Positions 26,850-51,723 of a stretch of 64,000 nucleotides of DNA are shown here, piece by piece. Location of the stretch: contig NC_059425.1 of assembly GCF_021028975.2 (NCBI RefSeq), positions 29,698,001-29,762,000 of the forward strand, given 5' to 3'. The position numbers and the translations under genes are program-made. The notes below the pieces were generated by a model. The model saw only the letters and a program-made list of their open reading frames with translations, did not search any database and was not told the origin of the DNA. This DNA is from Sphaerodactylus townsendi (Eukaryota). The first letter of the stretch is position 1; every line of letters begins with the position of its first letter.

Positions 26850-27040
26850 ACTTAAGAACACAAGAGTCCTGATGGATCAGACCAATGGTCCTTCTAGCCC
26901 AGCATCCTGTCCCACACAGTGGCCAACCGGTTCCTCCTGAGTGCTAACAGTGCATGAAGGCCAAGGACTTCCCCCGGTGTTGCCTCCTAGCACTGGTATT
27001 CAGAGATTTATTGCCTCTGAATATGGAGGTTCTATATAGT
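26850..27040 (-). mobile_element. CR1 3'UTR fragment
   Basis: TAAGAACACAAGAG...GGATCAGACCAATGGTCC is the reverse of the CR1 tail seen at 10330-10388. Confidence 0.6.
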
Positions 27041-27180
27041 CACTTTCCTCCCAGGGAAGGTGCTTCAACCTCTTAATTATCTTGTAAGATGAATCTGCTT
27101 AGTAACTGTTAGTTTTTAGCTGCTGCAAAGAGTACATACCACTACCATAAAGAAATACAGCACAGGCTAATTCATAAACA

Positions 27181-27186
27181 TTTATT
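27181..27186 (-). terminator. Probable ESCO2 polyadenylation signal AATAAA
   Basis: TTTATT on the plus strand, about 585 nt downstream of the ESCO2 stop codon. Confidence 0.55.
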
Positions 27187-27769
27187 TGAACAGATGTGAT
27201 CAGCTCACAAAATTTAGTGCAAGAAATGTAGCGCTTTGTAGACGCAGCCCACGTGGACTCTACCCTCACATGAAATTCTTCAAGATTACAGTCCTAGTGC
27301 TGCACATTCACCACCAGGTATAAAATATAGCTCATTAGTCCATAGCAGCATAAAACTCTTTCCGCGTTATACCTATTTCTTTTCTAGAAAGCAGCTTTTA
27401 CCGAGTTCCTCAGCCTGGAGCTGATTTTGTTAGCACGGATTTTCACATCCCACACTTAGAAGCACAGCTACAAGTAACCCACCAGGTTTGCCAAAAACAT
27501 GATGGGAACCAAGAGCCTAGCAATATCAACCAGAGGGAGACTAGATATATATATATATATATAGTATTAGTCACTATTCTCCTTCAAATCAACTTTAAAA
27601 GTTTCAATTTTGGCAACAAAAGTTACCGAAGCAACAGCTACTTGATACTATTCCTCAGTTAACATTGAACACTTCATCTAAATCTCAACTTCCTGAAGAA
27701 CAGGCACCCTTCCCCATGAAAAGGTAACTTTTCAGTTACTCTAATGAAACACACTGAAATTGCACAGCC

Positions 27770-30700
27770 CTAATTAAAGAAATTATAAACAAGGAAGTTG
27801 GGAGTTTGACAATATTTGACTGCAAATAGCTTGCCATCTGGGGTGGGATCAGAGAAAGCAATTTCATCGGTGCTTAGGCAGGAGCCAAATAGGAATGTAC
27901 GCCTGGAACAGAAAACAAGAATGGATGACCAATGCAGCACAAGCATCTTACCTTCAAAATTAATTCACTTTGTTGTCCTATAAAATAAGCCACATACAGT
28001 TGGAAGAAAAAAAGTACCCGAGACTGCCCAGAATATAATTTTTCTTATCTTTCCAGCATGCACACTTTTAGCATTAAGGGAAAATGCTTATTTAAAATAG
28101 TATTTCCTATCAGACTAGAATAGGATTCACATATTAGTTCATTCTCTCATGTTGGAGGAATCATTTGCCCAGGGCTCTTTTAGCACTAGTTCCTATCAGT
28201 GTGGGTAACAATCACCACATAAAATCAGGGGTGTCAAACATGTGGCCTGGGGGTTGAATCCAGCCCCTTGAAGGGGGCTTATTAGGCCTGCAAGCCAGCT
28301 GAGACTACCTCCCCCCCAGATCTGGCCTGGTGAGCCCTGGGATGCACCAGGCCAGATTAGGAGTGAGGGTTTTTTTTTGCTCAGTTGGCTCAAGGGCTTG
28401 ATAAGCCCCCTCAAGGCAGTCATCCAACCCCTGCTGCAGGCTAACCTGACCAGCATGCCCCCCCAATCATATTTACATCATATCTGCCATGTGTAACAAT
28501 TGAGTTTGAAAGCCCTGACATAGATAATTCACTGTTTAAAACAAGGCTAGGCCCTTTCCGCACAGGGGTTTTATGGCGCCCTGGGGACGGCAAAAATGCC
28601 GTCCCCAGGGAGCCATTTGCACAGGGGGCGCAGCTGCTGCGCAGCTGCGGCACCCTCGCGGCGCGAAGCCAGCATTTCCCAACCTCGCTTGGGGAGCGAG
28701 GTTGTTGGGAAATGCCGCCTTGGAGCTGCTGCCGTGCGAATGGCAGCGGCTCCAAGGCGCCCTCCCCCTCCCAACCTTCACTTACCTGGTCCCCGGCCCT
28801 CCGGCGCGTCGCCGAGGCCTGGGGACACGCCCCCCTGCCCTGCGACGCTCAAGCAGGCGCGCAGGGCCGGCGTGCCTCCAGGCCTCAGCGACGTGCTGGA
28901 GGGCCAGGGACAAGCCGGGCCGGCCGGGCGACAGCGCTCCGCGGCGCCGTCGTCCCAGCGTCGTGGGGTCGCCGTGGTTTACGCCGACCCAACCCCTTCC
29001 GCCTCCGTGCGGAAGGGGCCCTAGTGAAATATCCAAGCCATGATGAGCCCATTTCATTCAAACTATCAGCTTCCTGCTCTGGCTTGAATCCAGCATTTAT
29101 ATGCTCACTGGATCCTGCTGGAGAAAGCCGATAGATAAAATTAAAGCTCTCTGTATATTGCTATATGTAGAAGGTGAACCAGCTTTAAGTGTAAATGACC
29201 TGGGTGCTTCCTTATTGTTTGTCCCTTAACCCAAGCTAAATGTGGGTGTCATGCTAGGGAATATCCCAGAGCAGGGGTAGGGAACCTGCGGCTCTCCAGA
29301 TGTTCAGGAACTACAATTCCCATCAGCCCCTACCAGCATGGCCAATTGGCCATGCTGACAGAGGCTGATGGGAATTGTAGTTCCTGAACATCTGGAGAGC
29401 CGCAGGTTCCCTACCCCTGTCCCAGAGTCTTGTGTTGAATTCTGGGCTTCAGTTCATTTTTAAATAAAAGACTCAACTATAGTTTCTCACCTGACTACAT
29501 CCACCAGGCGTCTGGCAATGCCCTTTCTCCGCATCAGGCTGAACACCCAGATTCTACTGACCCCACAGACCACTTTTTCAGGCTTCGTTGAGCAGCACCA
29601 GGCACGATGATGCTCCAGGCTGTTCTTAGTGGGAGATTCTGCTGCCTCAGAAAGCACCCGAAAAGCCTAGGAAAAGGGCAGATAGCTTAGAAAGCGATGG
29701 AATGGGGAAAAATCCACAAGCCTGCACTCAAAGGCAGTCTTATGGGACAGATGACAATGTCTGTGGTTGCTGAGTCACATGTTACTTTGGGTGTGCCACT
29801 ATCAAGAGCTGCAGATGTCACGACTGTTCTTGGATGCTTTATTTGCAATAGGCGTTGTTATCCAGTACTTGATTATCTGGAATGCTGTTACCCAGAGGGT
29901 AAACGCCTCCCTCTCTCTAGCCACCATGCCCACCACCCCACTCTGGTCTCTCATGCTGGCCACCTTGATACCTCTGGCTGTTGTTGGGTTTACACAGCTT
30001 ACACTACATCATCCTCCACTGCCACCATCTTCGCAGCCTGCCTCGGCTGAAGAGTTCTCCAAGCAGTTGATCTACCTGTTTCCTGCAACATGGGATGGCT
30101 CTATGGCTTGGTCCTACCAAGCATGGGGGCTTTTGCCATGGTTGTTTTCAACAGGATGATGCCCAGTTGCTATGGATTCCATTGAGTACAGGGTGAGGAA
30201 GAACAAGAAGCTTGAATATTGGGCACATTCAATTAACCTCCATCCCCCAATCTCTACAAGTACCAGACAACAAAGCTTTCACTATACATCGTGCTATAAT
30301 AAATTCTTTACTCCTTAGGAAGCCACGAGACTCTTGTTTTTGCTGCAGCAGACTAATACAGCTGCTTGTGTCAACAAACCCCAGAGGAATAAGAGCCAGC
30401 ATGGTACAGTCATACCTCGGGTTTCGCCGGTAATCTGTCCGGCGACACTTGGCGAAACCGGAGGCTACGCCGTATGCGCATGCGTTATGCAAACAGCGTA
30501 AATTAGGTTCAAATCCCCACTTGCACCATTTGCTGGGAGACCTTGGGCCAGTCACACTTTTAGTCCTGACCCTGGCTACTATTTGGATGGGAGACCTCTA
30601 AGTTTGTGACATGGAGGCAGGCAACGGTAACTCACCTCCTACAGGGTTGCCATAAGTCAGCGGTGCCTTGACGGCAAATAACAACAACAATAATAAACCC

Positions 30701-33700
30701 ATTAGTCCTAAGGAAGCCATAAGACGGCTTTTGTTGCAACAGAATAATACTGCTACTTCTGTCAGCAGCTAGAAACCCCTCCCCCAAAACCCAGAGAAAT
30801 ACGGCCACCACAAAAACTGTATTTGAATGCGAAGTTTCTTATGAATTGTAAATGGAAGGATTCTGAAGACAGACTCTGAGGAACTGTTAGACTGAATTAA
30901 TTGGCTGTTGTGCATTTTCCGGGCTATGTGGCCATGGTCTGGTAGTTTTTGCTCCTAACATAAATCTGAAGATGCCAGTCACAGATGCGGGCAAAACATT
31001 AGGCGCAAAAACTACCAGACCACACAGCTTAGAAAACCCACAGCCAAATGAGCTTTTCCATCAAGGATATGCCCAGAATTAGCTTTCAACACTCTGCATA
31101 CTACATGTTCCTCACCTGCCTGACGGGTTCAGCAATTAAACAGCCAACTATCTTGTTAACTGATATAAACAGGTATGTTTGAGTGTGGGTTGGACAGGCC
31201 AAAGCTACTTGTTTAAACCCAAGTTCATTATCGACTAGCTCCCGGACATCTTCCATCTATACAAGAAAAATGAGACATGTCAGGTTAGTCACAAAAGTAA
31301 CACTTCTTGATAAAGCAATCTGCTGTACCTTGTTATCAGTTTGCTACAGCACCAAAAGGAGACTCCCACCTAATCCTAAGTAGCAGTCAAGAGCAGGTGC
31401 AAACAGTAAGCATTTTCTATCTGCTTGGTACTGTGTGGCTATAAAGTTGTTCTTTATAACCCTACTTTGCTTTAAATAAAGTACTTTGAAAAGTCAAAAC
31501 CATTTAATTTCTAAATAGTCAAATAAAAAAGGAGAAAGCTAGTTAAGAAAATAACTGAGGAAGATGAACAATATTCATTATTTTAAAACATTTCAAACAA
31601 CTGGAGAATTCAATTCAAGAAGGACATTTGGTGGATATTTATACTTGTGTCATGAGCAAAAATATTCACTCAAAAATACAAGAACTTTGGATCATCCCAG
31701 AAATGGGCAGGAAGCAGCTTTATACTATTTCACAGCTGGAGAAACAATGCTAGAAGAAAACGCTAAAATGTACCTTCTTGGTGGCATATTTTGGATCATC
31801 CTGCCGGACCAAGATAATTTTCCCATCCCAGAACTCTGCAACTACACGTTCATTCTTCCAGCCCTGCCAAGGAAAGAAAATGAGGGGTAGAAAAATGTAG
31901 ATTTCTAATAATTAGGACCTCAGAAATAAAAATCATACAGCCTGCTTGTTCCCGAACTTAAGCTCTAGGGGCGACCTGGGAAATGCCAAAGTAAGCTTAT
32001 ATATGGCAACACAAAAACCACCTCCAGAGAGATTGCTGGAACAAGTGGTTATTAGGACATTTCAGCTGACAGTCAGACAGTTCTGTTCAGCTTCCTAGCA
32101 AACTGCCAATTACTATTCCATTTAGTGAGGTGCATTCCTGAGATCATTGCTGTCCAGAACAAGATTGTTCACTCACAAAGGAGAGATGGTGGCTCATCTA
32201 GCTTTTGTCTTACCACATATTTTAATCCCTCGAGGAATCTCTGGTGGTACTGGACATGCTGTGCCTCATCTTCTGGGTTGGCAGCAGAGTAAACCATGCC
32301 ACATGCTTTGCAAACAGTGGCACCAAAATGTTTCTGACCAGCATCCTGTCAGGGCAGAGAAGGTATGACTATTTTAGAGTGGTACAAATAAACTGACGTA
32401 TGGAAGGAGTTCTAAAATATGGATGCACAGAGAGATCTTTCTGGCAATGGCAACATGGGTTACTTCATTCTAAACAGCTAAATGGAAACCTTTAAAGTAT
32501 ATAGTACTTTAGACTTCCTTTGAAGCTGTATGACCACACATAGAAATATACTCACAATGACCATCTGATCTTGAAAGTCTTTGCGCAGTTCCTTTGCCTT
32601 CTTGCTGGTTTTCAGTATGGCAGGAACCTTCTGCACAACAGGACTACGCTCCACAAGTGTAGGCTGCTCATCTGGGAGAACCTGCAACCTAGAATTATTT
32701 ATTTAGATGTGCCACCAACATAATTCTGAGGAGACTCCAGCACAATTCATATTTCCTTTTTTAGCTATCCACTCTCCACAATGGTCAGACCACACTGGTA
32801 AGCTGATCTCCAGAACAGAGCAATCAATCCCTGCACCCCATCAGAAAAGTCACAAGCAGCACAACTTGATTTGTCTATTTACAAAAGCAAGTTTCAAGAA
32901 TGGCTCTGGTTCCTCCCAGTATACTACAAAGCATTCGTTTTCACCTATACAGTCCTAATATTTTATGCTGGCAAGATCATACCTGCTAATGCACAACTGG
33001 TCCTGTGTGAGCTATATAAATAATTGGAGAATGTTTTGCCACACAACTAGCCAGATCAATTTGCTCTATTTGCACAAGAGGTTCCAAGAATCATCCCACA
33101 CCTCAGATACTGAAAGGACGAATGGTGACACCAAAAGCCAGAGATTTTTAGGTGTTTTTTTTAAAATTAAGATACTAGACAAGATGGATTAAATAGTTGA
33201 TTTGTAGTTACATTGTGTCCCCAAAGTATTGTAGAATAAAGAAGTAAGAGAAATGCATTTATTACATCATGTCAAGTAACAGTAGAAGTATGTGACAGCC
33301 TGCAGTGATGCTAAGAGTGCCCTTATGCTATGCAAGCACTTCATACTTGACCAGCACAGTTCCTTTTTCATAGGCATTATCCAACGATTCTGTAGCCTGG
33401 ATTTTAACATCAGGGCCAGGGGCTAGTGAGGCGTTGCCTTGGAAACAGTTAACAAATCCCAGTGCTGGGAAGAGGTAACGGTCAAGCCCTCTCCATACAT
33501 AGAATTTGGCACCCTCTCTCAAATAATTTTGTTAAATTACTATTTTTATTCCTATTAGTATTGGAGTTCATTAAGCCTCCAATTGATAATCCTTCCAGGC
33601 CCAATATAAGGACGTTGGTGAAGCAGGATTTTACTACAGCCCCACTGGCATTGTAAGTTTTTCTATCGTTTTATGCCACATTTGGATTCAAACCGAGAAG

Positions 33701-36645
33701 GAAAACCAGTGCATAAAAAGCATCTATACACATTTAATTACTTATGAAGGCCAGAATAAGATTACCTTTTTTTGTTCTCAGAATATGTACTCAAAGGATG
33801 GAAAACATCGGCCACAGAGGACGCTGGGGACAAAAAAAAACCTCTTTGAGATTTCCTCCATGTCCTCCATTTGAGTGCATGAGCCAGACACCAAATGCAT
33901 GGTATTCTGGGTATTAGTTTGAAAACGTTGAAGAATAGGATAATATGTCATACCAAATTTTTATGACAGAGTAAAATACAGAGGACAGCAATGCTTACAT
34001 TTAGTAGTCTCAACAGGGTTCTTACTGGAAGAGGCATTCTCACGCTCATCTCTATTTTTGGTTGGTCCTTCTGATATGCCTTCAGAGATCTGTGACAGAA
34101 AAATACTTTCTAAACAAAGAAATGTTCAGGCGATATACTTTTCAATATCGATTCCAAGGATTGGTCTGAAGGTACGTGACTCTGCAAGTACAATTCAGGC
34201 CAGAGCTGGGAGACTATCTAGGTGACTTATATGAACCCTAAATAAAACCTGCTAATTGCTATAACCAGTCTTGCCATGCTACTGTGCCTGTTGAGTAAGG
34301 CAACAATGCAGTAAGCAACTTTCCGAAGCACAATTACACTTCCAAATGCTGCAAGACGGCATTGCCGTCACTATATCATACAACACTGTGTGATTTTCTC
34401 CAAAAATGCAGTAGTGGAGAGAAAAGGGTTATTTCAGATTATATAAATGTATTCATGTTCATTTTGGGGTATGGCATTAACCACATGAGGGTTTAAGGAT
34501 CTTTTAAGCCTAAGGCCCATTCCTCACAAGCCATGTAGACCAGCATGGGGCCTGTAAAAATACCGTCGTGGAGAAGATCGCACAACTGCCGCTGCTGCAG
34601 CAGTGGTGTTTTCCCTCCACAGTGGCGTTTTCTCTTTTTGAAAATGTCGGCTTCCATCTGGTGCCAAGCGGACAGCATCATTGGAAGTCGCTGTTTTCCC
34701 TGCGCCGCTCCCAGTCCCCTTTTACCCCCACTCGTGTGGCCCATGAGGAAAGAGCCAAAGAGTCACTCTGGCCCAGTCTTGTCAAGAAACATTAAGCCAA
34801 AATAAAACAAAAAATCCAAGCATCTGGTACTGCTCATTACAATGCTGTCAAGATCAGCAGGGCTGTAATGTAGTTTTCAGCCCTCTCAGGTTGCTGTATC
34901 TGGGAACAGAGGCTGCTGTTGCAAGTTATAACTTGTCCACATACACATTTTGTAACATTCCATACCCCTCCAGAGAACAAAACTGTGACCATATGCATCA
35001 CAAGGGAAAAAATGTGAGAATATTAGTATGTGCACCGAACATCTTGCCAGCTTTCATAAATACTACATACCTCTATATCAACTGCCTTTTGATCTAAGGT
35101 GTTTGAGCCATCAGAGTGAGAAGGTTGGAGGGCCTCACTTCTCCGCAAAAGGTTCGTGTCATGTGTAGTCCTCACATCTTGGTTAGCATTAGTAGAAAGT
35201 GTCCCACTATCCTCCTCTTGTTTCTCCTGACTTTGGGTCTCATATGTTTGGCTTCTTTTCTCACCAATCTCAGCTGCTTTGCCTTTAGTGGCCAAATGGA
35301 GCTCTGTATGGGCTTGGACTCCATTCTGTTTCTCCCTCATCACGGACTTGCTGACAGAATGCAGTGATGACGGAGATGAAAGGTCCTTCTTAGAGCCAAA
35401 GGGCGTCTTCTTCCGAGTCATGAAAAATGCTGCACTGGTCTGAAGTTTCAGCGCAGGCTTGAATTTCATGCTTAAGATTCTGAAAGGAGTCTCCATTTTC
35501 TTTTCAACAACAGAATTAACATTCTCTTTCTGCTTATTAGGCTTTGCAGGAGTCATGTCTGTTTTAGTCTTTTTGCCTGTTTTAGTCTTTTTGACATTTC
35601 TTGACAAAGTCTTGCCTTGTCTCAAAGCTGCTGAACACCTGGATATTTTTGAACTGGTTTTCATAACAGGCATTACTTTCACCCAGACTGTCTCTGTCTT
35701 ATTGGCAATAGGTAGGTTGCCTTCATCTTTTCTTGGACTAAGAGGGAGGCTTTTGTTTGCAAGCTTTCTCTCCAGTACATTGCGATATGGTTTCCCTTTG
35801 CTATAAAAGGAGCTGGAGGACACAATGGAATAGTGTGTAGTCTCTGACGTAGGGGACATTCTCTGCTGGAACTCCCTTCGTGTCCTCCCTGGCACACTGG
35901 CTGTCTGAACTGGAGAAGTGTCCAATTTCTGTGAACTGGTTGACCTTTGGAGCAAGTTCTGGTTTTCTTTATCATTATCTTGAACGCCAGGAGTTTGCTT
36001 TGTTAGAGATGCAGCACTGTGACCTGTGGGCATCTTTACCATAGACTGATCCTCAGTGAACTCCAGCATCAGTTTTTTTACTGGATTCCCATGTACTAAC
36101 TGCAAGCTACAAAAAGTAAAATTACAGTAATATTTCATCCTACACATTTCAATATGAATTCAGCTATCGTGGTAATGTTTCGGCTCAAAAATAATATTTA
36201 TGTCACTTTATGAGTCATAAGACAATGAACTTTATTTGCAAATATAAAACTATATTGAAGTATGTTGCTGATCCCCTTTTAGATTGGATTTGAACTGCAC
36301 CATTCTCAGTCATCTTAACAGCGTTATTCTAAACAAAAAAACTTTCAATGATAATTCTGTATTTGTTTAATTTTGAACTGGTAGAGGGAAGAATTAAAGA
36401 TGAATGGGAAATTATCGGCCATTACACATTATCAATTATATAACGGCCATCAGTTGTTTTATGATATTGCAAAATGAACAGGAATATGTCCATATAGATC
36501 AACAGTTATATTCATGCTTCACAGCTGTTACAAATACTAGACTTAAGGGTAAGAAATCTTCCTAAAACCCTAGAAATATATAATATAAGCCTCACCCAGA
36601 TGTAGAAGAACAGTATTTTCTTTTTCTTGGAGTAATGGTTGCCAT
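27770..36645 (-). CDS. ESCO2: N-acetyltransferase ESCO2 (establishment of cohesion 2), 10 coding exons, 679 aa
   Basis: Coding exons (minus strand) 36645-36596, 36106-35071, 34089-33999, 33823-33766, 32688-32556, 32345-32214, 31863-31774, 31256-31116, 29666-29491, 27902-27770 (total 2040 nt, GT-AG, phases consistent). [10 protein letters not shown] start, PIP-like QMVIDAGQK, C2H2 finger CKACGMVY...HVQYH, acetyltransferase motifs [33 protein letters not shown], and stop TAG. Confidence 0.97.
28226..28517. mobile_element. hAT MITE with CAGGGGTGTCAAAC terminus
   Basis: Ends CAGGGGTGTCAAAC / GTTTGAAAGCCCTG with an imperfect TSD (CATAAAAT/ACATAGAT). Confidence 0.7.
28550..29020. mobile_element. 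PIF/Harbinger-like MITE, GC/CpG-rich (young)
   Basis: TIR GGCCCTTTCCGCAC / GTGCGGAAGGGGCC with a 3-bp CTA duplication. Related copies at about 25197-25602, 34514-34757 and 61529-61679. Confidence 0.75.
29272..29419. mobile_element. Palindromic hAT MITE (148 bp) in ESCO2 last intron
   Basis: Near-perfect inverted repeat CAGGGGTAGGGAACCTGCGGCTCTCC..., with an exact TSD TCCCAGAG. Confidence 0.93.
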
Positions 36646-38878
36646 GTCTTCAGTAAAGTGCCTAGAAATCAGAAACATTTACATACAGTTTTTCTGCCTG
36701 CAGAACTGAATTTAGAAAAACATTATGCTTGATTAACAGTCTTAGGGTGGGTCCTTTTTTCCTTCACCCCCTCCCCTTTATCTGGCTGAGTTGATAACAG
36801 CAACCCAAAATGGTGTCTCACAATAGGTCCTCATAAGACTTCAAATGCTTCACAGTTAGTGTATTACCCTACATGCCAAAGTTTTCCCAGTGAGCTGTGG
36901 GCCTGTTTGTACAGCACAGCTGTAATTTCTAAGGATGCCTAAAAGGCAGCCTTTTGGATCTGCAGTGCATTTTTACCCTAGCTGGGGAGGGGAGGGGATG
37001 GTACATTTTCTGCTTATCTGACAGCAGATATAGTATGTGAGTCAGTAAACTGAATTGGTTTATTCTGTGAATCTGTTTACACATGTAATCCTTACAGTGG
37101 ATATCCGGCTAGATGACTTAACATGGATCATGTGAAGTGGTTACAGGGCCCTATTCCCTCCTCCCATGCAAAATGAAGTTTTATTCCCTCACCCCTGCAC
37201 AATGCACTGTCTGAATGGTGACAAGATCTGCTCTTCTACTATGCAGACCCAACACATATACCAGGAATGTATTTACTTCATTTATACCCCACCTTTCCCC
37301 TCAAGAGGAATCCAAAACTACTTGCATCATTCTCTACTCTTCCATTTTATCCTCACAGGAACCTGATGAAGTAGGTAAATTGGGACAACAGGAATGGAGT
37401 GAGACTGGATGTCTGGTAAGGAGCTGCAAGCCTAGCACTGTGCCTTAGATCAGGGATGGGCAAGCATCAACACCAGGGCTTTTGGAGAAGAAGCTGCTGC
37501 AACTGTTCAGACCATAGCAACTTTGTAGGTAAGTCCAGCTGCACCTATCTAAACACACTTTCTGGTTCACAGTTTTAAACTTGAGCTATTTTTGCAATCC
37601 ACTTCAGGCCTTTGGCTTGACAGGCCAGATTATAAATATCTTAAATGAAAGTATTCTTCGGCTCAACATGCCATAGTTGTGCATATGTGTGTGCTGCCTG
37701 GTTCAGTTTCCAGTCAACTCAAAGCTCTCTCTTCCAAAATGACAGGCAACTTTTTCTTCACATACCTGCTCCTTTAAGTGGATTAGTGGATTTTTCCAAG
37801 CTCTGACAGGACAGAAGACCACCTTGTAACAACTCGCACCCTAGAGGAAACACCCACAGCCAGTTATATTAAAATAACCAGATGCCAGATGTTAGCATTG
37901 TCTGGGAAAAGCCTTGGCTCCACAGCAAGGATCCCCAAAGTGGAACCCACCCACCAAGCTTTTTAGAAATTAGACAGGTCTTGCTATTAGCTGCCTTCCT
38001 GCAAATTAAAAAGGTTTCTATGCCTGGAATAGCAGCCACAGGAAGGTCAACAGGGCTAGTAAGCACCCATACTTTCCTCGGTGTGTAGGTCCATTCCCCA
38101 TGTAGGCTTTCATTCTTTTTTACTGCTCCTTTCTCTACTAGTCTCCTTCTGCAAAGCAAGTCGGAAGGGATGTTTTTCCCTGCCGCCTGTGGCAGCCGTT
38201 TTAGATGGCGTTCACCATCTCTTCTCAAAACTCCAAAGGTGCTCACAGTTGCAAACAAGTTTGGGTTTTTCTTCAGAATACTAAATAGAAATTGGGGAAG
38301 GTTTCCTCGACGTGTGGTGTTCTCCGTGTCTTCTGTCACAATTCTACACAGGCGAGGGAAGCTTTAGCTACGGTCGCACCACTTCAACCTGCAGGAGACC
38401 GAGGGTGACTGAGACGGGGCTGCGGAAATGGCTTAAACACTTATTTCTCTCCTTACTTAGCTAAAATTCATCCAAACCTGTGTGTACATGGCGGAGGTGG
38501 GTGGGGGGGGGGGGAGATTTAAGCAACTACGGACCTTTCTGCACGTAGAAAGCTAGCAAAACGTGCTTTCTCCCTCAGTTGCGAGTTTTCTCCAAGCAAG
38601 GAGGCGTTTTCGGTTCTTTCTCGCCTACTTCTGAATTTGCGAAATAGGATCGCGCCTCCTCTCGTGATTTTTTTTTTTTTTTGCCCATTCATCAGTCAGA
38701 AGCCCCGACAGATCTTAGCTTCCGACACCGAGCTTCCAATGTTCACCTCTTGGCGTCATGAAGCCTAACGAGGTCCGGCACGCCACCCCGTTTCTTCGCC
38801 GCCACCACCATCTTTTCGCTTGCGATATTAACATTTTTCTTTAACAGAACCAACCCCCGCCCCCCCTTTCATAATTAC

Positions 38879-39280
38879 CTCAGAGAGAAAAAGAAGTCGC
38901 GAAAAGGCCGGATCCCGCGCCAACCGCCTCAGTCGACGCCTGCCTGTCTTGCTCGCACCTTTCGAATCTCCGCCGCGCGCGCGAGAAGAGCCTCGTTTGC
39001 TCCTATTGGTCGATGTTGTGATTGTTTCCGGAGGTTCTAAACTGCCATTGGGTGCGTTAATAGCCAATGATAGTTTTCTTATGCCAAGCTCAAGGAAAAA
39101 TAAGAAACCCGCCCTAACTAACTTTGGACCAATAGAGCGTGCCGTTTTTTGTGTCAACAAAGGCTATTAGCCAATGAAATAATTGGGCGGTTGCTGGGCA
39201 AGGCTCTCCCTGTACAATCTGAAAATGAGGAGAGAGAAGAGAGAGAATTGCGCAGTTTTCTGGGAAGTGTAGTTTTTAGA
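38879..39280 (-). promoter_or_regulatory. ESCO2: ESCO2 CpG-island promoter and non-coding exon 1
   Basis: Minus-strand donor AG|GTAATT at 38879/38878, CHR-type TTCGAA at 38961-38966 beside a GC-rich CDE/E2F-like run, about six CCAAT/ATTGG boxes in both orientations (39004-39186), and a ZNF143/THAP11-type motif ACTACACTTCCCAGAA (minus, 39258-39273). Confidence 0.8.
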
Positions 39281-39506
39281 GGGACTTTGTGTCGTATTTG
39301 TCGAGCAGCGCGGTTTCTTCGTGTGCCTGGAGCGGTAAGGCATTGCAGACTTTTATTGAATGTGGGGTTCTTGTAGTCATTCAGGGTGCGACGTCAGTAT
39401 GGTCTACAAGTCACTTATGCTCTTAGTTTCCTGCAAACTGAATCCTAGTTAGTGCCAAAGAACTAGATGCACGTGTTGATTTAAACTGATTTTTCATCAG
39501 TTAAAT

Positions 39507-42500
39507 CACGTGTGTCAAACTCAAGGCCTTTGGGCCACATCTGGCGAGATGGCGGCAGCCACAGAATGTGCGGAGTTGCAGCCTAAGCTGCCTCCATTGG
39601 GACATGCAGTCACAATCTCCCGCCTGCAGGTTAGACAACAGGGAGGTGAGCTCAGAGCTGCCACTTGCCTCAATGGGAGTGAGGAAGGGAACTTTGCAGA
39701 ATTTCTGTGCCAAGAAATGTGGACAAACTGAAGTTTGCGAGGGAATATCTGCCCGGGAGCCCTTGAGCCCTATCTTTATCCCTGAATCCGTCTTCTGTGA
39801 CTTTTTGTGCTTCATCTCTTGCTGGAGGTTGAGGGGGGAGGGGAGAAACCCGGAAAACACCTTCAGAAGGGAGAAGAGGAGAAACCTTGGGGTGGGGGAG
39901 AGAAAAGGGTGGGGGGAGCCATGCCTTAATATGTATGTGGAATGTGGGGGGGGGGGAACAGGAAGGGATTTTGCATGTTGAGAATTGGAATTTGGAGAAG
40001 TTTCAGGAGTGAGCAAATTCACCAGAGGGCTGGAAAAATACAGCTTGTGGTTTGGGTGTTATTTTTTTTTTTTGCAAGGCTGCCTTTTTGCAGCTGCAGG
40101 CTTTCAACGCTGCCTCCTTTGGCTGGCCCTCCCCATGCCACCCTCCCCCCCAATTCAGGACAAGATTTTTTGTTCATGATTCCCCCCAATCCACCCCCTT
40201 GCAAAAAGGAGGTCTGCAGCCTTATTAATGCAAAAGCAAAAAGTGCGCGCCTTTGCAAAATGCATGGGAAACTCGGGGGTCCCACACAGGTGCAAGAAGC
40301 TGGAAAGAAGACAAGCCTGGGGTTTTTTTGGGGGTGATGGGAAAGTGGAGAGAAATGGCCGCAGGAGGGGGCGGTGGGCGCATAGTGTTGACTTTTGAAT
40401 GCCTGGCGCATTCAAGGATCCCCCCTTCCAGCTGGTAAGGATTTGTTTCCTGTGATTTGCAAATGACCCTGGAGCAGCAGCAGTGGTGGCATGCATGCAA
40501 GCAAGGTGGTTGGGGGTAGAGGCTTTCGGCACTTTGGGGTTAATAGAGCCCACCCCTCCCCTCATTTCCAAATGACCCCATTGCAGGTTTTTTTTTTGCA
40601 AGGCTCCCCACTCTTCTTGTAATGTATTGCCAGCTTTTTACCCTGGGGAGGGGAGGTTCCAGATCTCCTCCATGTGAGGGTAGGGGAAATGCCAGGTACT
40701 CCTCTGCTGGGTTCGTTCTTTCTTTCTTTCCCCACAGTAAGCCCCCAACCCACAACAAGGCCTCCCCCCTCCTCCCAACCCCAGCAACCCACCCTGGCCC
40801 AGGGATCCGAGCGAAAGGGAGGGAGCCGCGCTGCTCTCTGGCGGCAGCTGCTGCAGAAGGAGACGCCGCAGCCGCGGCATGTTTACTCAGTCACTGAACC
40901 CACCCCAATAAAAATCTATACCTATGTGCTTGCTTTTCAAATAGGCTACCTGCGATCATTCCTGCGTCAAGTTCGTCAGATCAAGCATCTGTTGACGTAT
41001 ACAACCCTAATTTCAAATCAAAGCTAGCCCCTAACAATGGCCAAGAGAAAAGCTGATTCTGAAAACATTTGCGGAGGTAATGTGCCTGTAATTAAGGAGT
41101 ATAATCTAAGACAGCACTACAAGACAAAACATCAGGACAAGTTTAAAAACCTGGATGCAAAGCAGAAACTACAGAAGGCTGAAGAGTTGAAGAGGAATCT
41201 GACATCCCAGCAGACCGAAGTGAAATCACAAAGTGAAGCTGCTATGAAAGCAAGTTTTATTGTGGCAGAGAAGATTGCCAAATCAGGACGGCCATTTAGT
41301 GAGGGAGAGTTTCTGAAGAACTGCATGATGAAAGCGTGGGACATCATGTGTCCAGATATAAAACAGGCGTTTGCAAATGTAAGCCTTAGCACAAATACGA
41401 TTGCTGATCGGGCTTGTGAGATGGCCACTGATTTGAAAACACAGTTGCTTGAAAGAGGGAAAGACTTTGTTGCATACTCCCTTGCTGTGGATGAAAGTAC
41501 TGACACTGCACAGCTGGCCATCTTCATCCGTGGAGTGGACTCCAGTTTGTGCGTTACTGAGGAAATATTGGACATTAAATCGATGCATGGGACAATGGAA
41601 GGAAAAGACATCTTTGAAAACGTATATCAAAGTGTAACCGACATGAAACTGCCTTGGGACAAACTTGTTGGACTTACAACAGATGGAGCACCAGCGATGT
41701 GCAGTGAAAAAAGTGGACTAGTGGGAAGGATGCGCTTAAAGATGCGGGAGGAGAACTGTGCTGGTGAGTTGACAGTATATCACTGCATCATACACCAAGA
41801 AGCACTGAGTGGTAAAGTCCTAAAAATGGATCATGTGATGAACACTGTAACACAAACAGTAAATTTAATCAGAGCCCAAGGTTTAAATCACTGCCAATTT
41901 CAATCTTTTCTGCGGGAAATAGATTCAGAGTTTGGCGACATGCCTTATCATACGCAGGTGCGGTGGCTAAGTCAGGGGAAAGTTCTCAATAGACTTTTTG
42001 AGCTGGTCGAGGAAATCTGTCAGTTCATGGACAGTAAAGGAAAAGACTCCACAGTTCTGCGGGATGAAAAGTGGAAATGCGAGTTGGCATTTCTGGCTGA
42101 TATAACTACGCATCTCAGCGTCTTAAACCTTCAGCTCCAGGGACAGGAGCGCATGATAACTGATATGTATGATGCAGTGAAGGCATTTCAAGTAAAGCTG
42201 TGCTTATGGGAGACACAAATGCACCAATGCAACTTGTCTCACTTTCCCTGTTGCCAGGTAATGTTGAACCAAGTTAGCGCCACAGTGTTCCCAAATGCTC
42301 ACTTTGCTGATAAACTGAGCGCACTTCGCACTGAGTTCACATGGCGCTTTGCTGATTTGGAAGCACAGAAAAGTAATTTTGAACTGCTTCGCAACCCATT
42401 TGCTGTCGATGTGGAAACTGCACCAGTAGAAATTCAGATGGAGCTGATAGAGCTGCAGTGTAACGGAACGCTGAAGGCAAAGTACGACAGTGTGGGGCCT

Positions 42501-43025
42501 GCACAGTTCATTCGCTTCATTCCTGAAGTGATGCCCCAGCTCCGTCAACATGCGGCTCGAACCCTGAGTTTGTTTGACAGCACATACCTATGTGAGCAGC
42601 TGTACTCTGTGATAAAAATTAACAAAACCTCGCACAGGAGTCATCTCACTGATGAACACCTTCAGTCCATCCTGAGAATCTCCACAACACAGAACCTAAC
42701 CCCAAACATAAACGAACTTGTTGCCAAGAAGAGATGCCAAGCATCAAACTCTGATAAAATGGCATCAGAGCACAAATAATGTAATGTTTTGATTTGTTAT
42801 GATGTAACTTTTACTTTAAAGCACCATTTTTATGAAGAGCAAAATATTTCAAGTTTAAGTTTATGTTGCAATGATATTGTATCCTGTGTTTCAATGTATA
42901 TTAATGTTCAAAATGTTCAGTTTTAGTCTGTTTAATAAATGTTTATCCTGTTTGGCCTGTTTGGCCTGCAACCTAAAGTGTGCTTTGAGTTTTGGCCCCC
43001 TGTGCCATTGAGTTTGACACCCCTG
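39507..43025 (+). mobile_element. Full-length hAT (Charlie/Buster-type) DNA transposon, 3519 bp
   Basis: Left TIR CACGTGTGTCAAACTC (39507) and right TIR GAGTTTGACACCCCTG (ends 43025), 14/16 match. Flanking 8-bp TSD AGTTAAAT (39499-39506) / AGTTAAAC (43026-43033). Encloses a transposase ORF and AATAAA at 42934-42939. Confidence 0.93.
41037..42779 (+). CDS. hAT transposase, GTF2IRD2/EPM2AIP1-like family, 580 aa open ORF
   Basis: Single ORF with good Kozak context (acaATGG). Motifs AVDEST (D1), TTDGAPAM (D2), HCIIHQE (CxxH), VRWLS, STYLCEQ (E), and a C-terminal dimerisation region RSHLTDEHLQSILRI. The N-terminal BED finger is partial. Confidence 0.9.
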   Translation: MAKRKADSENICGGNVPVIKEYNLRQHYKTKHQDKFKNLDAKQKLQKAEELKRNLTSQQTEVKSQSEAAMKASFIVAEKIAKSGRPFSEGEFLKNCMMKAWDIMCPDIKQAFANVSLSTNTIADRACEMATDLKTQLLERGKDFVAYSLAVDESTDTAQLAIFIRGVDSSLCVTEEILDIKSMHGTMEGKDIFENVYQSVTDMKLPWDKLVGLTTDGAPAMCSEKSGLVGRMRLKMREENCAGELTVYHCIIHQEALSGKVLKMDHVMNTVTQTVNLIRAQGLNHCQFQSFLREIDSEFGDMPYHTQVRWLSQGKVLNRLFELVEEICQFMDSKGKDSTVLRDEKWKCELAFLADITTHLSVLNLQLQGQERMITDMYDAVKAFQVKLCLWETQMHQCNLSHFPCCQVMLNQVSATVFPNAHFADKLSALRTEFTWRFADLEAQKSNFELLRNPFAVDVETAPVEIQMELIELQCNGTLKAKYDSVGPAQFIRFIPEVMPQLRQHAARTLSLFDSTYLCEQLYSVIKINKTSHRSHLTDEHLQSILRISTTQNLTPNINELVAKKRCQASNSDKMASEHK

Positions 43026-43067
43026 AGTTAAACCTTTCTTTCTTGGAATGACCAGGATACTTAAAAT

Positions 43068-43168
43068 CAGTGGTGGGATTCAGCAGGTTCGCACCACTTT
43101 GGCAGAACCAGTTGTTAAAATGGTGCTTGTAAACAACCAGTTATTAAATTATTTGAATCCCACCATTG
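43068..43168. mobile_element. 101-bp hAT MITE
   Basis: TIR CAGTGGTGGGATTCA / TGAATCCCACCATTG with an exact TSD CTTAAAAT. Confidence 0.88.
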
Positions 43169-45113
43169 CTTAAAATGCATATGATTAATAGCATGACTTT
43201 CTGTTTCTTCCTTTTTGAGCTCAGTCCCATCGATTTTTTAACTGCTTTTTTAATTTGGTTATTTATAACGCACCTTTCTCTCTGAGACATAAGGCAGGTT
43301 ACATAGTGTATGTTATATACAATCAACAAGATGGGAAATCCAAGGAACAGTGTAATAGGATTCAGATTACAGAAATCTGAAAACAAAACCGAAATGTCAA
43401 CAAAGCAGAAACAAAGCATTAGCTTGTAAACACGGTATTTTAAGTGGTGTAGAAACTACCTAGTGTAACTTTACAGCAATAGGCAGCAACACTTGGTTGA
43501 CACTTTAATTGAGCTGTCCGCTATGACCCCGAGGTCTCCTTCCCTTTCAGTTTCAGCAAGTTCAGACCCCACTACTAAGTATTTAAAGATGGGAGGTTTT
43601 TTTTGTTTCAATCTACATCATCATTTAACATGAGCTTTTATGGAAAGCAGCCTGCCCTCCTCAGAGCATGGAAGCTAAGAAGACTGAGGTTGCTGTGTTG
43701 AGGAAGGCAGACAACCTTGTGAGATCCAACGTGGTGTAGTGGTTAAGTGCAGCACCCTTTAATCTGGAGAACCAGGTTTGATTCCCCTATTCTTTCATAT
43801 GAAGCCTGCTGGCTGATCTTGGACCAGTCACCATTCTCTCAAAGCTCTCTCAGCCCTACCTACCTTACAAAGTGCCTGTTGTAAAATCAGGAAGAGAAAG
43901 TGTTTCTGTGCCCTTTTGAGACTCCTTAAAGGAGAAAAAAACAGTATAAAAACCTCTTCTGCTCCTTCACCTCTGCTTGTGTCTTGTCTGGAATGCCCTA
44001 TGGACGAGCTCATCTTGAGTCAGTTGTGACTTTATGGTGCATTCTTCTACTTACTGTTGAAATGCATTATCTCCTGACTCACCTATATCTCAAATGCAAA
44101 AAGCACAGGGTGATACTTTTTAAAATTCAAACCAAGTAAAGAAAAAAGGCCATTTGCTTGTCATTATAGGCCAGTTAACACCAATAATGGCAGGCAGACT
44201 CCAGTTTTTGCTAACAGAATATGTGTAGAGCCTGAGAAAGCCCAGTTGCAGGGAGGTAGCATGAAAGCTTCTATCCTTTCCTAACCCCTGTTTAGCTGTT
44301 CAAGTGCCCATCTTGAAACTCCACACTTCCTTTCCATATCACGCCATCCATACATGGCACCTATGATGCCATGATACCAGCAGTCACTTTTCTTGCTGCC
44401 TGCCAACAGTTTTGGGAAAGTAGGCAGGGCCAGATCAGGCTCTTGTCCATCAGGCCTTCTGACTGGCCATTGGCCATTCTATCTGACTGGCCATTGGCTA
44501 TGCAGAAGTTTAGGAAGTTGCTTTGGCAGCAGCTACCACCACAGCACAAGAATCTTCCCTGTATGACTGCAGATAAGTTGTGTATGCAAGAAAATATTTT
44601 CAAACATGTTCATCTTAAAAGGTATCCTGTTATACAGAGCTTCTGCTTCAAATGCTGAAGAGTTACTATTAGATGCGAACCTCACTTCCTGAGATTTTTG
44701 TGGTTGGCGTTGCCTCTTGGGGCAGCCATTTTGAGGCTGTGCCCACCATCCAGTGTCGGAATTCTAAAGGTGCCCACAGACTCAGAAAGGCTGGGGACCA
44801 CTGTGCTAAGCAACGTTGACCAAGCAATGTTTACTAAGCAGTGTTTACGTCCTATGCCCATTGACTTCAAAAGGGTTGAGGAAGGTGCACCTCTAAGAAT
44901 GGAAGCTTCTCTGGCCTCCATCTTCCTCCATATCTCCACCCAGCCTTCTTCCCTGCTTGACTCTGATTTATCCCTTTCCTTGGGGTGACATTTTGAAACT
45001 TTCAAACCTTCCTGAAGGAGCTGGGAGGACCCCCACCCCACACACACTCTAATTCATAGCACAAATTGACCATCCCCTTCAGACTAATGACAGTGACGTT
45101 AGAGTTCAACCTA

Positions 45114-45241: not shown

Positions 45242-47756
45242 TCAGTCTGGGTGTCTGGCAATTTTGCTAGTGCTTTTCTTGGAGGGAGTCCTCTTCAGCA
45301 AACTGGGGGATTTCCTTGGTGTCCCAGGGGAAGTCGATTTTTTAGTGCTACTGGTCCCTTTCTGGGAGACCTTAGGTGAATCTGGTTCTTTAAAGCTCAG
45401 GGATGGCCTCCTGCGGTCTGTGGGGGACGTCTGCTTGGTGAAAGAAGCACGTTTGAGTATAGGAGGAGTGGCTGATTTGAGGGGAGAAACCTTTTGTGTG
45501 CTGGGGGACAAAGGAGAGACTTTTGAAATGGCTCCTTTCTTTTGGACCTCAGAGGTGGAGGACTTAAGTGAAAGAAGAGCCCCTGGTTCTTTCCGGGGCT
45601 GAGGGGAAACACGGGCAAATTGGGGAGAGTCTGGTTTCTTGGAGGGAGAGCTTTTCTTAGGGCAGAACTTCTCGGGGCACTTATTTCGCACCTTGGCCCA
45701 AATATTCTTGATGGTGGAGAGCAGCTGTTTCAGAATGGAGTGGGGCTTCTCGGGTGTTTTCGGATGGACTTTCTTTGGAGGTGGTGGGGACGGCTTTGCA
45801 GATACCGGAGATGGCCTTGCAGATAGTGGGGGTGGCCTTGCAGATCGTGGTTGGAACTGTGTTTTAGTAGTTTGTGCACTTGCAGGTGCTGGGGTAGTTG
45901 CAGCAACCCGTGCAACCTGTTGAGCAGCCACTGGATTTCTGGTCTTCCGGTTACCTCTCTCTGGGAGATGCTCCCTAGCAACATGAGGTGTCTTATCTGG
46001 GATTTTGGGACCTTGGGGTCTTGGTCCAGCTGCGCGGCCTTGGCTCTTTCTATGTGGAGTGGTGCGCTTACTCTTCTCTCTCTTTGAGGGACGTTCTTTG
46101 TCACAGGGTTTCTTGAGCACATCTGTTCCTTGTGTCAACCCCCACATGTCAGCTTCAGACCTCTTGATCTTAAGGAGGAAGCCGAGGGTCATATACGCAT
46201 TACCATCCTGCACATCCAGCCGTGGGTAGACAAGGAGGCAGGGGCTGTGCCGCATACGCGGGTGGGGGCAATATGGGGTGCAACGGCCACATAGCAGGCA
46301 CAGCGGATACTCCACGCTTGGTTGGCTGGACCCCATCTCCAGCCCTTTGGCCAGGTGCATTTTCAGGTCCTGCATTGCTTGCTCAGAGTCCAAAGACTGT
46401 ATGATGGTGTGGGCCAAGCACTGGGGCTTAGGAGTTCTAGCAGCGGGACGTGTACTGAGTTGTGCAAATGGGTAGCTTTTCTGGTTCTGTTCTTCTCGTG
46501 CTGCAGCAATGCAGGGCAACTCCAGTTGGTTCTGGCACATAAATGAAGGGTCCAGGAACTTCGGTTGCGTAGTAGCAGGTTGCGCCCAGGTCAGACTTGG
46601 TTTCTGAAATTCAGGCATGTTACTCCAACTCAAGGTGTGCATTGTCTGGTCTGTTCTCAAGCCGGCCTTGACCTCTCCTTGCTTGTCCTTGGGGCTGCCA
46701 GCTCTTCCCACCCTGCCAAGATCCTCCTTGGGAGACCCAGGTCTCCTGCCAGGGCTGTGACTATCCTTCTTTTTTTCCTTGGGGGTCTCGAGTCTTCCAG
46801 ATTCTCTTGGTGTGGAACTCTGCCCAAACACGGTGATCAGTTCTGTCAGTTCCTCCTTGGGGATCTGGCTGTTCAACGTGACTTCTACAGATTCATGAGC
46901 ATTGCTGTGATGTTGATCTTTCTTTTTTTCCTTAAGGGTCTCGGGTATTCCAGATTCTCTCAGTGTGGGGCTCTTCCTTTGCCCTAACACGGTGAGCACT
47001 TCTGCCAGTTCCTCCTTGGGGGTCCTGCTACTCACCTTGACTTCCACAGATCCATGGCCATCGCGGTGGCTTTCTTCCTTGCAGATGAGCGTGACGGGAG
47101 GAGGCAAGTCTTCTGAAGGAGAAGGAACAGGTATCATCGGCCGTGCAAAGAGCCCTGGGCTTGGTGGGCGAGGGGACTTGGGTGGTGTATGACGTCTGAT
47201 GCTTTGAGGAGGTGTGTGGCTGTGTGGCCGCTGATCTAGAAGTGACTGCTGGGTCATCCCATGCACCATCCCATCTGCCTGAGTTCTGTCATTCCCAGTA
47301 TGTGCCACTTCCTCCTCCTGACGTTTCTTCTGAATATGCCAGTTGAGCAACTCCTGCTCCTTGTAGCTCAGGACCCTAGCCGTCCTACTCTGCATATCGG
47401 GATTGGTCCTGTTGGTTGCTGGATGCCATTTAGGGGCTGAGGAGATCAGTCTGGTCAGAGACTCAGAGTGGGGTGTCGGTCCTCCCTGCTGCTCCTCCAG
47501 TTGCTTCTGACGTATGTTGAAATCGACCTTGCGATGAGACAGGGCCTGTAGGCGGACCTTCTGGAACCCAGCCCCGGGGGGTCTGATGAGATGTTGCTTT
47601 TGCTCCCTGCACTGAACATCATTTCCCAGGGTATCAGGTACTGGGGGAGATGGTGTTCTAGATTGGCCACCTGCTGATGAATGGACCCAACTGTAGAGTG
47701 AAACAGCAGTTTCCACAGAGGCATTGGATGTAGATGAGTATGCAGTCCTAGACAGT
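45242..47756 (-). CDS. Large terminal exon of a C2orf16/SPATA31H1-like, basic Ser/Pro-rich protein
   Basis: 2.5-kb open frame with no TE hallmarks. Polypyrimidine tract with acceptor ccccAAG| at 47757 (alternative at 47748). Motif EYPLCLLCGRCTPYCPHP..SPCLLVYPRL...G...LGFLLKIKR resembles the C2orf16 block YPVCLQCGRC...PYLLIYPQL...LGFRLRIGKR as I recall it. SPATA31-like motifs VDFNIRQKQLE and LNWHIQKKRQ. AATAAA at 45119-45114. Confidence 0.8.
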
Positions 47757-48059
47757 CTTGGGGAGGAGGGAGATAAAGTCAAAGAAAAGGCAATTCAGGA
47801 CACTCCCTGTGGGTTCACCCCAACTGCAAGCCTAAGAGAAGGTAATCCCAATTGATTAAAAATTGGGCTTACTCCAAAGTACATTTGCTTAGGATTGCTC
47901 TCCAAGTAGCCCAGCATCCTAGACTCCTAATTTGTTCAGGATTCCACATGTGCTGTGATTCTATGGGAGCACAAAAAAAAAGGTGCAAACGATGACAACA
48001 AAACCAAACTATCTTAATCTGTCAACCTATTGTTCCCATCATATCTGAACAGTCTACTC

Positions 48060-50164: not shown

Positions 50165-50930
50165 CCTCTAGGTTATAGCTAGAGATTTCCTGGCATTACA
50201 ACTGATCTCTAGGGGACTGAGATCAGTTCACCTAGAGAAAACGGCTGCTTTGGAAGGTAGATTCTCTATAGCATTATACCCTACTGAAGTCCCTCCCCTT
50301 CTCAAGCTCTGCCTTTCTCAGGCTTCATCCTTCAAATTTCCAGGTATTTCCCAATCTGGAGCTGTCATCCCTATGTGCCTTACGTGCCAGCGATGCGTTG
50401 CATTTGCCATGCAATGTACTGGATATTCCTGTCCAATGTACTCAGAGTGTACTTCAGATTCAGGTCCTCAGATGATCTAGCGAACATTTAAAAAGTGGAG
50501 TGTTAGGGTGCTGGCATTGTGTTGCCATACAGTGAGATTTTCTTTTGTTGTTTATCTCACCTCTGGCTGTTCTAAATTATTTTTCTCTTATTGCTATAGT
50601 AATCTCTCTTCCCCTCTCACTCACAAAAGTCCATTCAATTAAATGTCCCCAAATAAAATACAGTACAAATCAATAACATACAGTACAAATCAATAAGAAG
50701 TCTGTCAAAAGTCCATATCCCTCTTCCATCCCATTTATCAATCCAACTCAAAGGCTCTCTAAAAAGGCCAGTCTCAAAAACTGACTGGAAAAGCCTTTGG
50801 AAAACAGCCATTCTCTCCTGTGAGGAGACTCAAGACAGCTTACAAACTCCTTTCCCTTCCTCTTCCCACACAAGATTGTGATTGTGAGGTAGGAGGAACG
50901 GAGAGCGTTCTGAGAGAACTTTGACTAGCC

Positions 50931-51068: not shown

Positions 51069-51524
51069 GACTAGCCCAAGGTCACTCAACAGGAATGTAG
51101 GAAAGGGGAAACAAATCCAGTTCACCAGTTAAGAATTCGCCAGATAAGAATGTGGAGGAGTGGGAAATGAAACCCATTTTTCCAGATTAGAGTCCATCTG
51201 CTTGTAACTACTACACCATGCTGGCTCTCAAAAGAAAAAGCCCCAGGATCTGGCATTCCCAGTGCAAGAATCTAAGTAACAGGCATAGGGCGGGGTGGGG
51301 CAGTGGGGAGGACTTGGTCTGAGTGGCTGATGTTGGGTGTTCTTTTTTTTAAAGGAAGGGCCAGACTGACCCTCAATGTATTTATTTTGCTTCTTTTTTT
51401 AGAGGCTGCAGAGAAGGGTTGAAGGAAGGTATGTTTTATATGTGGGTCTTATTTAAGTTTTATAGCTCAAGAGCTTGATCTAAAAACAGGTCTGAAAGAA
51501 AGGAAGGGCTTTGGAGTGGCTCAC

Positions 51525-51723
51525 CTCTCTGGGTCTGTGGCTTCGTCCCTTGTCCCTTGCAAAGATGCTGTAAATGAAAGACAAGAAAGTCACATGAGCC
51601 AAGTTAAGTGTAGAGAGCAGCATCTCGCCATCTGTTGAGCCAAAAAGGAAGAAATTTGGCCATATCTGGCTGCTTACTTAAGCATGGTGTCAAGTACTTT
51701 GATTTCTTCTTGGAACCAGGAGC
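51525..51723 (-). CDS. Two candidate upstream micro-exons of the C2orf16-like gene (51723-51678, 46 nt; 51567-51525, 43 nt)
   Basis: Both have strong pyrimidine tracts with AG acceptors and GTAAGC/GTGAGC donors. Phases 0>1>2 join in frame to the 47756 exon, giving APGSKKKSKYLTPCL-TSLQGTRDEATDPE-RLSRTAY. Confidence 0.55.

Follow-up and report, generated by a model that had tools for sequence, protein, structure and literature searches.

Introduction

Can the promoter of a host gene, acting in its reverse direction, supply the messenger RNA of a transposon that has inserted beside it? The question is raised by a stretch of 64,000 nucleotides from the gecko Sphaerodactylus townsendi (RefSeq assembly GCF_021028975.2, contig NC_059425.1, positions 29,698,001 to 29,762,000 of the forward strand), referred to here as the window, with positions counted from its first letter. 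Within it, a 3.5-kb hAT element (39507–43025), bounded by terminal inverted repeats (TIRs) and an 8-bp target-site duplication (TSD), lies head-to-head with the gene ESCO2. A preliminary description of the window had proposed that a non-coding exon made from the ESCO2 promoter is spliced onto the transposase exon, as in domesticated hAT genes, to give a cell-cycle-regulated mRNA. EPM2AIP1, which lies beside MLH1, is a further example of a domesticated hAT. No paper on the gecko locus was found in the open-access literature.

The answer favored here, tentatively and with slightly less than even confidence, is that the element is an expressed, finger-less hAT fed by host-promoter splicing, and thus a candidate for early-stage domestication and not an established gene. 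The copy has lost its native ZNF143-type motif together with half of its zinc finger. According to this reading, its still-open transposase frame probably receives, through splicing, a short exon from the ESCO2 promoter's reverse arm, and the resulting processed mRNA is probably free of cell-cycle control. From the evidence below we infer both the promoter and the splice junction; the RNA most likely arises in this way, with a promoter inside the element second.

Likely Expression of the Transposase Frame

Four sequencing runs of one study (X1–X4), none of them recorded as RNA, were compared over 36400–43700 as assembled contigs, placed at a likeness of 86, in tables rich in repeats. Three of the runs (X1–X3) are flat across introns (~67, 20, and 34×), as is typical of DNA. 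In contrast, the depth of X4 tracks the exons of ESCO2, with bins of 46, 31, 24, and 58, whereas most bins over introns stay at 1–8 and a single repeat bin reaches 166. The X4 bin over ESCO2 exon 1 (38840–39083) stands at 57.7, while the adjoining bins stand at 1.3 and 0. We infer that X4 is RNA. Since a single X4 contig spans the frame at a depth of 218.5 (Table 1), while the listed pieces of this copy's interior upstream of the frame reach only 2.3 and 3.6×, the frame is likely transcribed as processed RNA. At 39615, at 39622, and at the listed places in 40363–40698, X4 carries the letters of a paralogue only; therefore, the abundant species either skips the interior or starts after it.

An ordinary silent insertion would require that X4 is not RNA, or that its contig stems from a near-identical copy, with the open frame owed to luck and to the selection of intact frames for study. 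The kind of X4 is indeed not on record, the protein changes at a near-neutral rate (see below), and elements of this sort are known to be annotated as genes by mistake (PMC10641963; papers are cited throughout for the portions of their text that were available). However, the agreement of X4 with the ESCO2 exons sets it apart from the flat runs X1–X3. Furthermore, the depth of the frame core equals that of its flank (68.8 versus 67 in X1, 20.1 versus 20.7 in X2), which leaves no room there for a second near-identical copy; the 580-codon frame is open and its core single-copy, although X3 additionally shows a gapped paralogue piece. A silent insertion is judged improbable.

As a separate observation, X4 contains over 40333–40730 a paralogue of the interior with 34 differences at 87×, together with pieces of equal depth near 39528 and at 39579–39622. 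Another copy of the same subfamily is likely transcribed too.

A Replaced 5′ Region and a Lost ZNF143-Type Motif

In related elements, ~300 bp separate the terminal repeat from the transposase ATG. The gecko copy carries ~1.4 kb of GC-rich sequence instead, and the DNA depth of this interior in X1 is ~4–10 times that of the flank, the sequence being partly common to several other loci. Of 52 loci, L007 is the nearest relative at the DNA level, matching the first 800 nt of the frame with 88% identity, and its homology has a sharp edge at 40941 (82 of 96 positions identical downstream versus 35 of 79 just upstream). Because the homology starts there, the AG of the proposed splice acceptor (40943–40944) is native to the element, whereas its pyrimidine tract comes from the interior.

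A ZNF143-type pattern occurs in seven of the 52 loci, L007 included, ~120–170 bp before the ATG (pattern positions: L001, 112; L002, 380; L003, 166; L007, 158; L011, 1236; L032, 2407; L036, 954). Given its likeness to a described ZNF143 site (PMC3082894), this native motif presumably acts as a promoter. The gecko copy is without it, and nothing in the window matches the pattern except the host site ending at 39273. With the native site lost, the frame needs an outside or captured promoter, for which the ESCO2 island is the closest candidate. Two points thus support the proposal of a plus-strand transposase mRNA made from a host promoter: the frame is likely expressed, judging from X4, and the native site is gone, a replacement that the preliminary description did not note.

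The interior also holds splice donors (39645 and 40434) and acceptors (40078 and 40737) of its own. At its start (39546–39645, plus strand), a YY1-type motif is joined by an exon-like stretch with a strong donor (score 9.3) at its end, as if the 5′ end of a host gene had been captured; this stretch is absent from the abundant X4 species of this copy. An N-terminal extension of the transposase through an internal exon at 39549–39645 was considered and rejected, as its frame stops at 41025–41027 and X4 shows paralogue letters only in the exon.

The Host Promoter and the Candidate Splice Junction

A bidirectional pair is defined here by opposite-strand starts <1 kb apart within a CpG island. The stretch 38601–39350 is CpG-rich (observed/expected CpG ratio 1.11, GC content 49.6%), and its promoter core contains six CCAAT boxes in 205 bp where 0.4 would be expected (P ~4e-6). 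The basic geography given in the preliminary description holds. The transposon had been placed about 550 bp from the probable ESCO2 start in divergent orientation, and 39507 does lie ~545 bp from the start region at 38961–38966. CCAAT boxes had been reported in both directions, and there are three per strand in 38996–39200. The reported ZNF143-type motif is found as a minus-strand site ending at 39273, and the AATAAA said to follow the stop lies 155 nt downstream of it, at 42934.

The proposed junction joins a donor at 39334/39335 to an acceptor at 40944. For scoring splice sites, we used a simple weight matrix with textbook frequencies. The donor GCG|GTAAGG is present as described, but "strong" overstates its score of 8.0, compared to 9.0–9.7 for four donors of the neighboring gene CCDC25; the plus strand of the window has 57 donors scoring at least 8.0, equivalent to a 16% chance per 200 bp. 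Likewise, the acceptor reported as good does precede the ATG at 41037 by 92 nt that contain no other ATG, yet its score of 6.7 is ordinary and is reached at 211 plus-strand sites.

Of 64 joints, 15 were listed; these are all repeat-derived and include neither a 39334>40945 joint nor the joints of ESCO2 itself. Similarly, X4 has no cover in the bin 39084–39327, and the 11.9 of the next bin is accounted for by listed pieces (11.4). Because contigs drop short tips, neither the missing cover nor the missing joint was weighed against the junction. In the bin observed at 117.8, a depth of 107 is reached by adding a 91-nt leader from 40945 to the long contig.

Several points nevertheless weigh against host-promoter splicing as the source of this RNA. 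Neither the kind nor the strand of X4 is on record, and it represents one sample of one study; its contigs show neither a transcript start nor a level. Both splice sites are of ordinary strength, and stronger acceptors lie inside the proposed intron at 40737 (12.9) and 40078 (12.6). In addition, ~3,000 letter-depth of X4 in 40548–40791 is not explained by the listed paralogue. If it lies upstream of 40945, this depth would fit an internal start or use of the 40737 acceptor, although high-copy repeats blur the bin in question.

Such an internal start is the foremost alternative, unlikely but to be taken seriously. Transcription would begin at a promoter in the GC-rich interior at ~40740–40940; the ESCO2 island would at most guard against silencing, and the donor at 39334 would be a bystander. 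The patch at 40741–40900 has a GC content of 67.5% and nine CpGs (observed/expected 0.52), and a CCAAT lies at 40905. A hypothetical X4 piece from ~40760 at ~94× reproduces two bins (115.5 predicted, 117.8 observed). Moreover, several copies share the interior, and any autonomous one among them would have needed a promoter of its own. However, no piece of ~270 nt is among the eight X4 pieces listed under a roughly stated rule, though pieces of 166 and 171 nt are, while the DNA runs yield unbroken 249–437-nt pieces in that very region. High-copy repeats can give the same bin depth, and the leader of an internal start would contain upstream ATGs at 40879 and 40924 in addition to an AATAAA at 40907. 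The latter signal, which the preliminary description did not note, is the second AATAAA of the element.

The architecture preferred here, with a host promoter feeding the element through splicing, is already described for mammalian domesticated transposons (PMC2777200). Borrowing a host promoter is known as an opening stage on the path from such an element to a host gene. In human, 23 of 63 transposon-derived genes are in bidirectional pairs (Kalitsis and Saffery 2009, PMC2777200). The TIGD1–EIF4E2 type resembles the gecko locus in having a transposon upstream and antisense of a CpG-island gene, and Figure 1D iii of the same paper depicts a new upstream exon and intron spliced onto an element. 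In contrast to the gecko copy, the TIGD1 system is mammalian, conserved across primates, and has lost one TIR; the gecko copy still has its two TIRs and its TSD, and its first exon is a candidate only. ZBED1, ZBED4, and Buster3/C5orf54 likewise have a hAT-derived single coding exon and one intron in the 5′ untranslated region (UTR), as proposed here (PMC3257199).

Cell-Cycle Control

The hexamer TTCGAA, a validated form of the CHR (cell-cycle genes homology region), occurs at 38961 at the start of ESCO2, which itself is listed among the CHR genes in PMC4176359. This site is >300 bp from the candidate exon and lies beyond all six CCAAT boxes. A TTTAAA at 39480 is 146 nt into the proposed intron. 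Control through CHR and DREAM calls for a CHR on or very near the start of the transcript concerned, and the candidate exon has none in such a position. In all head-to-head CHR cases observed by Muller et al. (2014, PMC4176359), only one partner is a late cell-cycle gene. Since the CHR sits at the ESCO2 start and such partners are reportedly not co-regulated, the reverse arm, whose nearest site is that of ZNF143, is more likely constitutive. The claim that the transposase is cell-cycle-regulated is weakened on both counts.

The Transposase and Its Relatives

Membership in the hAT superfamily is plain from the 8-bp TSD, the short TIRs, the DDE triad, the CxxH and RW motifs, and a Hermes-like fold. 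Residues D152, D216, E520, C250xxH253, and R309–W310 are all intact. The predicted structure has a pLDDT of 82, and the top ten Foldseek matches are all Hermes (PDB 4D1Q, 2BW3, and 8EDG; E-values of 6e-8 to 2e-6), while a sequence search of the PDB returned no matches. The two 17-nt TIRs are complementary at 15 of 17 positions, and the last 15 nt of the right one are the same as a 3′ TIR in a list of hAT elements that had been misannotated as GTF2IRD2 (PMC10641963). Use of the TIR mismatch as an age clock was ruled out, as the CAC start also occurs in family members.

Compared to its relatives, the frame carries three in-frame deletions, one of 69 nt at 41066/41067 and two of 9 nt each, near 41216 and 41506. 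The first of these removes 23 residues, including the first Cys and the first half of the zinc finger, a loss that the preliminary description did not note. As a result, the Pfam zinc-finger model scores 16.4 bits (cut-off 27.3) versus 33–43 in all five relatives scanned, and the intact N-terminal BED-type finger of an active transposase is lacking. The Hermes transposase shares the fold and needs its BED finger; for its transposition the equivalent N-terminal domain is indispensable (PMC10368747), whereas Tgf2 without its equivalent domain shows an activity of 21–25% versus 56% (PMC4890040). By analogy, because half of the finger is deleted, the gecko protein probably cannot, or only poorly can, bind transposon ends and mobilize them.

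The protein is 84% identical to turtle proteins. In a tree of 29 rows, it groups with turtle and fish proteins (support 99/96) and apart from those of snakes and tegu. This grouping fits the horizontally spread hAT-6 type (PMC11008031 and PMC10641963), and the family presumably reached the gecko by horizontal transfer. Like the autonomous "GTF2IRD2-like" elements of turtles and fish described in those papers, the gecko copy shows that level of identity, the same clade and TIRs, and the DDE and RW residues; unlike them, it has a half-deleted finger, a 5′ region replaced by 1.4 kb, and a gecko host. The hAT-6_XT type is defined by 75% DNA identity over 90% of a turtle reference element (PMC11008031), and the word gecko does not occur in the available text of that paper. 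Mammalian GTF2IRD2 contains a related transposase domain and is the source of the matches' automatic name; its GTF2I repeats and N-terminal extension were not found in the frame. The exact 580-aa protein is present in NCBI and UniRef, but a database entry alone is no sign of function because such elements are often annotated as genes (PMC10641963).

Snakes have their own clade of related intact proteins (P0014, P0015, P0017, P0019, P0021, P0025, and P0026; P0028, P0030, and P0039), some of which carry a KRAB domain (PF01352). In this clade, the same transposase family may have been domesticated a separate time, in an event that looks older.

Selection and Domestication

How the protein has changed was followed over codons 1–268 by comparison with L007 (262 codons compared, three codons around two independent deletions being left out). 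Thirty amino-acid changes were assigned to the window copy, 19 to L007, and one was ambiguous, with a pairwise ratio of nonsynonymous to synonymous differences per site (pN/pS) of 0.51. L007 is frameshifted and has lost D216, yet it shows fewer changes than the window copy. The comparison suggests that this N-terminal part changes at a near-neutral rate. Among the 40 of 213 difference rows listed for full-match contigs, all three differences within the frame change the protein (I122V, T186P, and D514G), one of them at a near-invariant site. Private changes that fit CpG decay number 10 of 37.

Nevertheless, the 580-codon frame remains open after ~47 amino-acid changes, on a terminal branch of 0.082 per site. 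Under pure drift with 37–50 missense changes, the probability of having no stop is 0.06–0.19 and that of having no frameshift 0.001–0.12, given assumed indel rates and before allowing for the choice of an intact frame in the preliminary description. An open frame is thus somewhat unlikely by chance, which pulls away from the preferred reading and toward real selection. As the N-terminal part drifts near-neutrally while the frame stays open, the copy is best described as an early-stage candidate and not an established gene.

A full version of the preliminary proposal, with an established domesticated gene that purifying selection maintains and that shares the cell-cycle regulation of ESCO2, would account for the open frame and for all three indels being in frame. 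It would also account for the private changes being fewer past residue 150 (18 of 393 versus 19 of 139 in residues 1–150; p = 0.0007, with the cut chosen afterwards), for the single-copy core, and for an X4 depth of the same order as that of ESCO2 exons (140–230× by a rough estimate). However, the skew fades at a cut of 250 (p = 0.06) and recurs in one of 14 control proteins, turtle P0002 (ratio 2.0). Because L007 has an independent 9-nt in-frame deletion at the same spot as one of those here, some in-frame deletions arise without selection, and L007 has no stop in 288 codons. In addition, the 30 changes of the window copy exceed the 19 of the broken L007, the listed contig differences are all protein-changing, and head-to-head partners are reportedly not co-regulated by CHRs. 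No named gecko protein, nor any protein above 87% identity, is among the matches listed (120 of 800 and 120 of 560), though a Paroedura protein is present in the searched collection. The full claim is judged improbable. The word "domesticated" itself is weakened by the near-neutral change in codons 1–268, by the lack of an orthologue among the matches listed, and by the persistence of both TIRs and the TSD, the loss of which we take to be a mark of domestication. In the same vein, ZBED1, ZBED4, and Buster3 are old conserved genes, unlike the gecko copy.

As a bolder conjecture, and a long shot, the locus may be a young gecko gene in mid-domestication. A horizontally acquired hAT would have swapped its own ZNF143-type promoter for the ZNF143 site of the host beside ESCO2, shed its finger, and been kept open by selection because a finger-less protein with its catalytic core and dimerization region intact would, in proliferating germ cells, poison the multimers that transposases of the invading family form.

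The Surrounding Region

Features of the promoter and the element are collected in Table 1.

Table 1. Positions in the window of the ESCO2 promoter, the hAT element, and associated features.
Feature	Position	Strand	Remarks
ESCO2 non-coding exon 1	38879..38966	-	Donor 38879; 5′ end inferred from CHR TTCGAA 38961–38966
Promoter core: GC boxes plus six CCAAT boxes, three on each strand	38996..39200
Host ZNF143/Staf-type site	39250..39273	-	Motif form as in PMC3082894
Candidate first exon (non-coding), up to donor GCG|GTAAGG 39334/39335	39280..39334	+	From sequence; start and use putative
Left TSD AGTTAAAT	39499..39506
Left TIR	39507..39523	+	CAC start also in family members
GC-rich interior (~1.4 kb)	39546..40940		Non-homologous to 5′ region of relatives; partly multi-copy
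Native hAT leader	40941..41036	+	L007 homology begins at 40941
X4 contig over the frame	41008..42913		Single contig, 1906 nt, one difference, depth 218.5
hAT transposase frame (580 aa)	41037..42779	+	Open; three in-frame deletions
AATAAA polyadenylation signal within the element	42934..42939	+	155 nt after stop
Right TIR	43009..43025	-	Last 15 nt equal a listed 3′ TIR
Right TSD AGTTAAAC	43026..43033		Matches left copy at 7 of 8 positions

A 717-aa frame nearby matches part of a protein labeled Sphaerodactylus townsendi at 100% identity, in agreement with the gecko host. The minus-strand gene belongs to the ESCO acetyltransferase family, with Pfam ESCO zinc-finger or acetyltransferase models matching three of 124 stop-free segments in 17000–35000. 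We take it to be ESCO2 rather than ESCO1 from its N-terminus and its neighbor. The coding start is at 36645, and a probable 74-nt alternative 5′ UTR exon lies at 37766–37839 (minus strand; donor score 10.2), where an X4 bin of 24 compares with ~2 alongside.

The plus-strand neighbor, presumably CCDC25, gives a weak Pfam NFACT-R match and has its own coding exon 1 at 56810–56834 and an ETS-type promoter, so the donor at 39334 was rejected as part of a CCDC25 first exon. ESCO2 and CCDC25 are ~17.8 kb apart, and between them lies a conserved squamate gene (45242–47395, minus strand), PRR30-like according to the name in one source, with 17 matches among 101 candidates. Further pieces of it occur near 47620–47760, 50385–50460, and 51690–51730; as N-terminal peptides of a 934-aa model can be read in these upstream pieces, the gene has multiple exons, and it may be head-to-head with CCDC25.

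A micro-exon-like stretch with very strong splice sites (51403–51428, plus strand; acceptor 13.2, donor 10.1) belongs to no gene identified here and could be part of a plus-strand non-coding RNA. An Rfam scan of 36000–58000 gave no matches. Finally, a short inverted-repeat element with 18-nt arms (43065–43171), 31 bp past the right TSD, is extremely high in copy number, with an X1 bin depth of 4.6 million.

Significance

A site for a ubiquitous vertebrate activator, which relatives carry in the 5′ subterminal region, could aid the spread of this family among fishes, turtles, and lizards; none of four papers listed by a literature search addresses this in its title. If the frame proves broken in congeners, the gecko copy would be an ordinary transcribed transposon remnant. 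The locus would also directly test whether the reverse arm of a CHR promoter escapes cell-cycle control. Since the known domesticated hAT genes are old, the order in which promoter capture, loss of mobility, and the onset of selection took place is hard to see in them. A copy that is young, expressed, and finger-less, with its ends retained and its protein variants segregating, would let that order be read across a species-rich genus of geckos.

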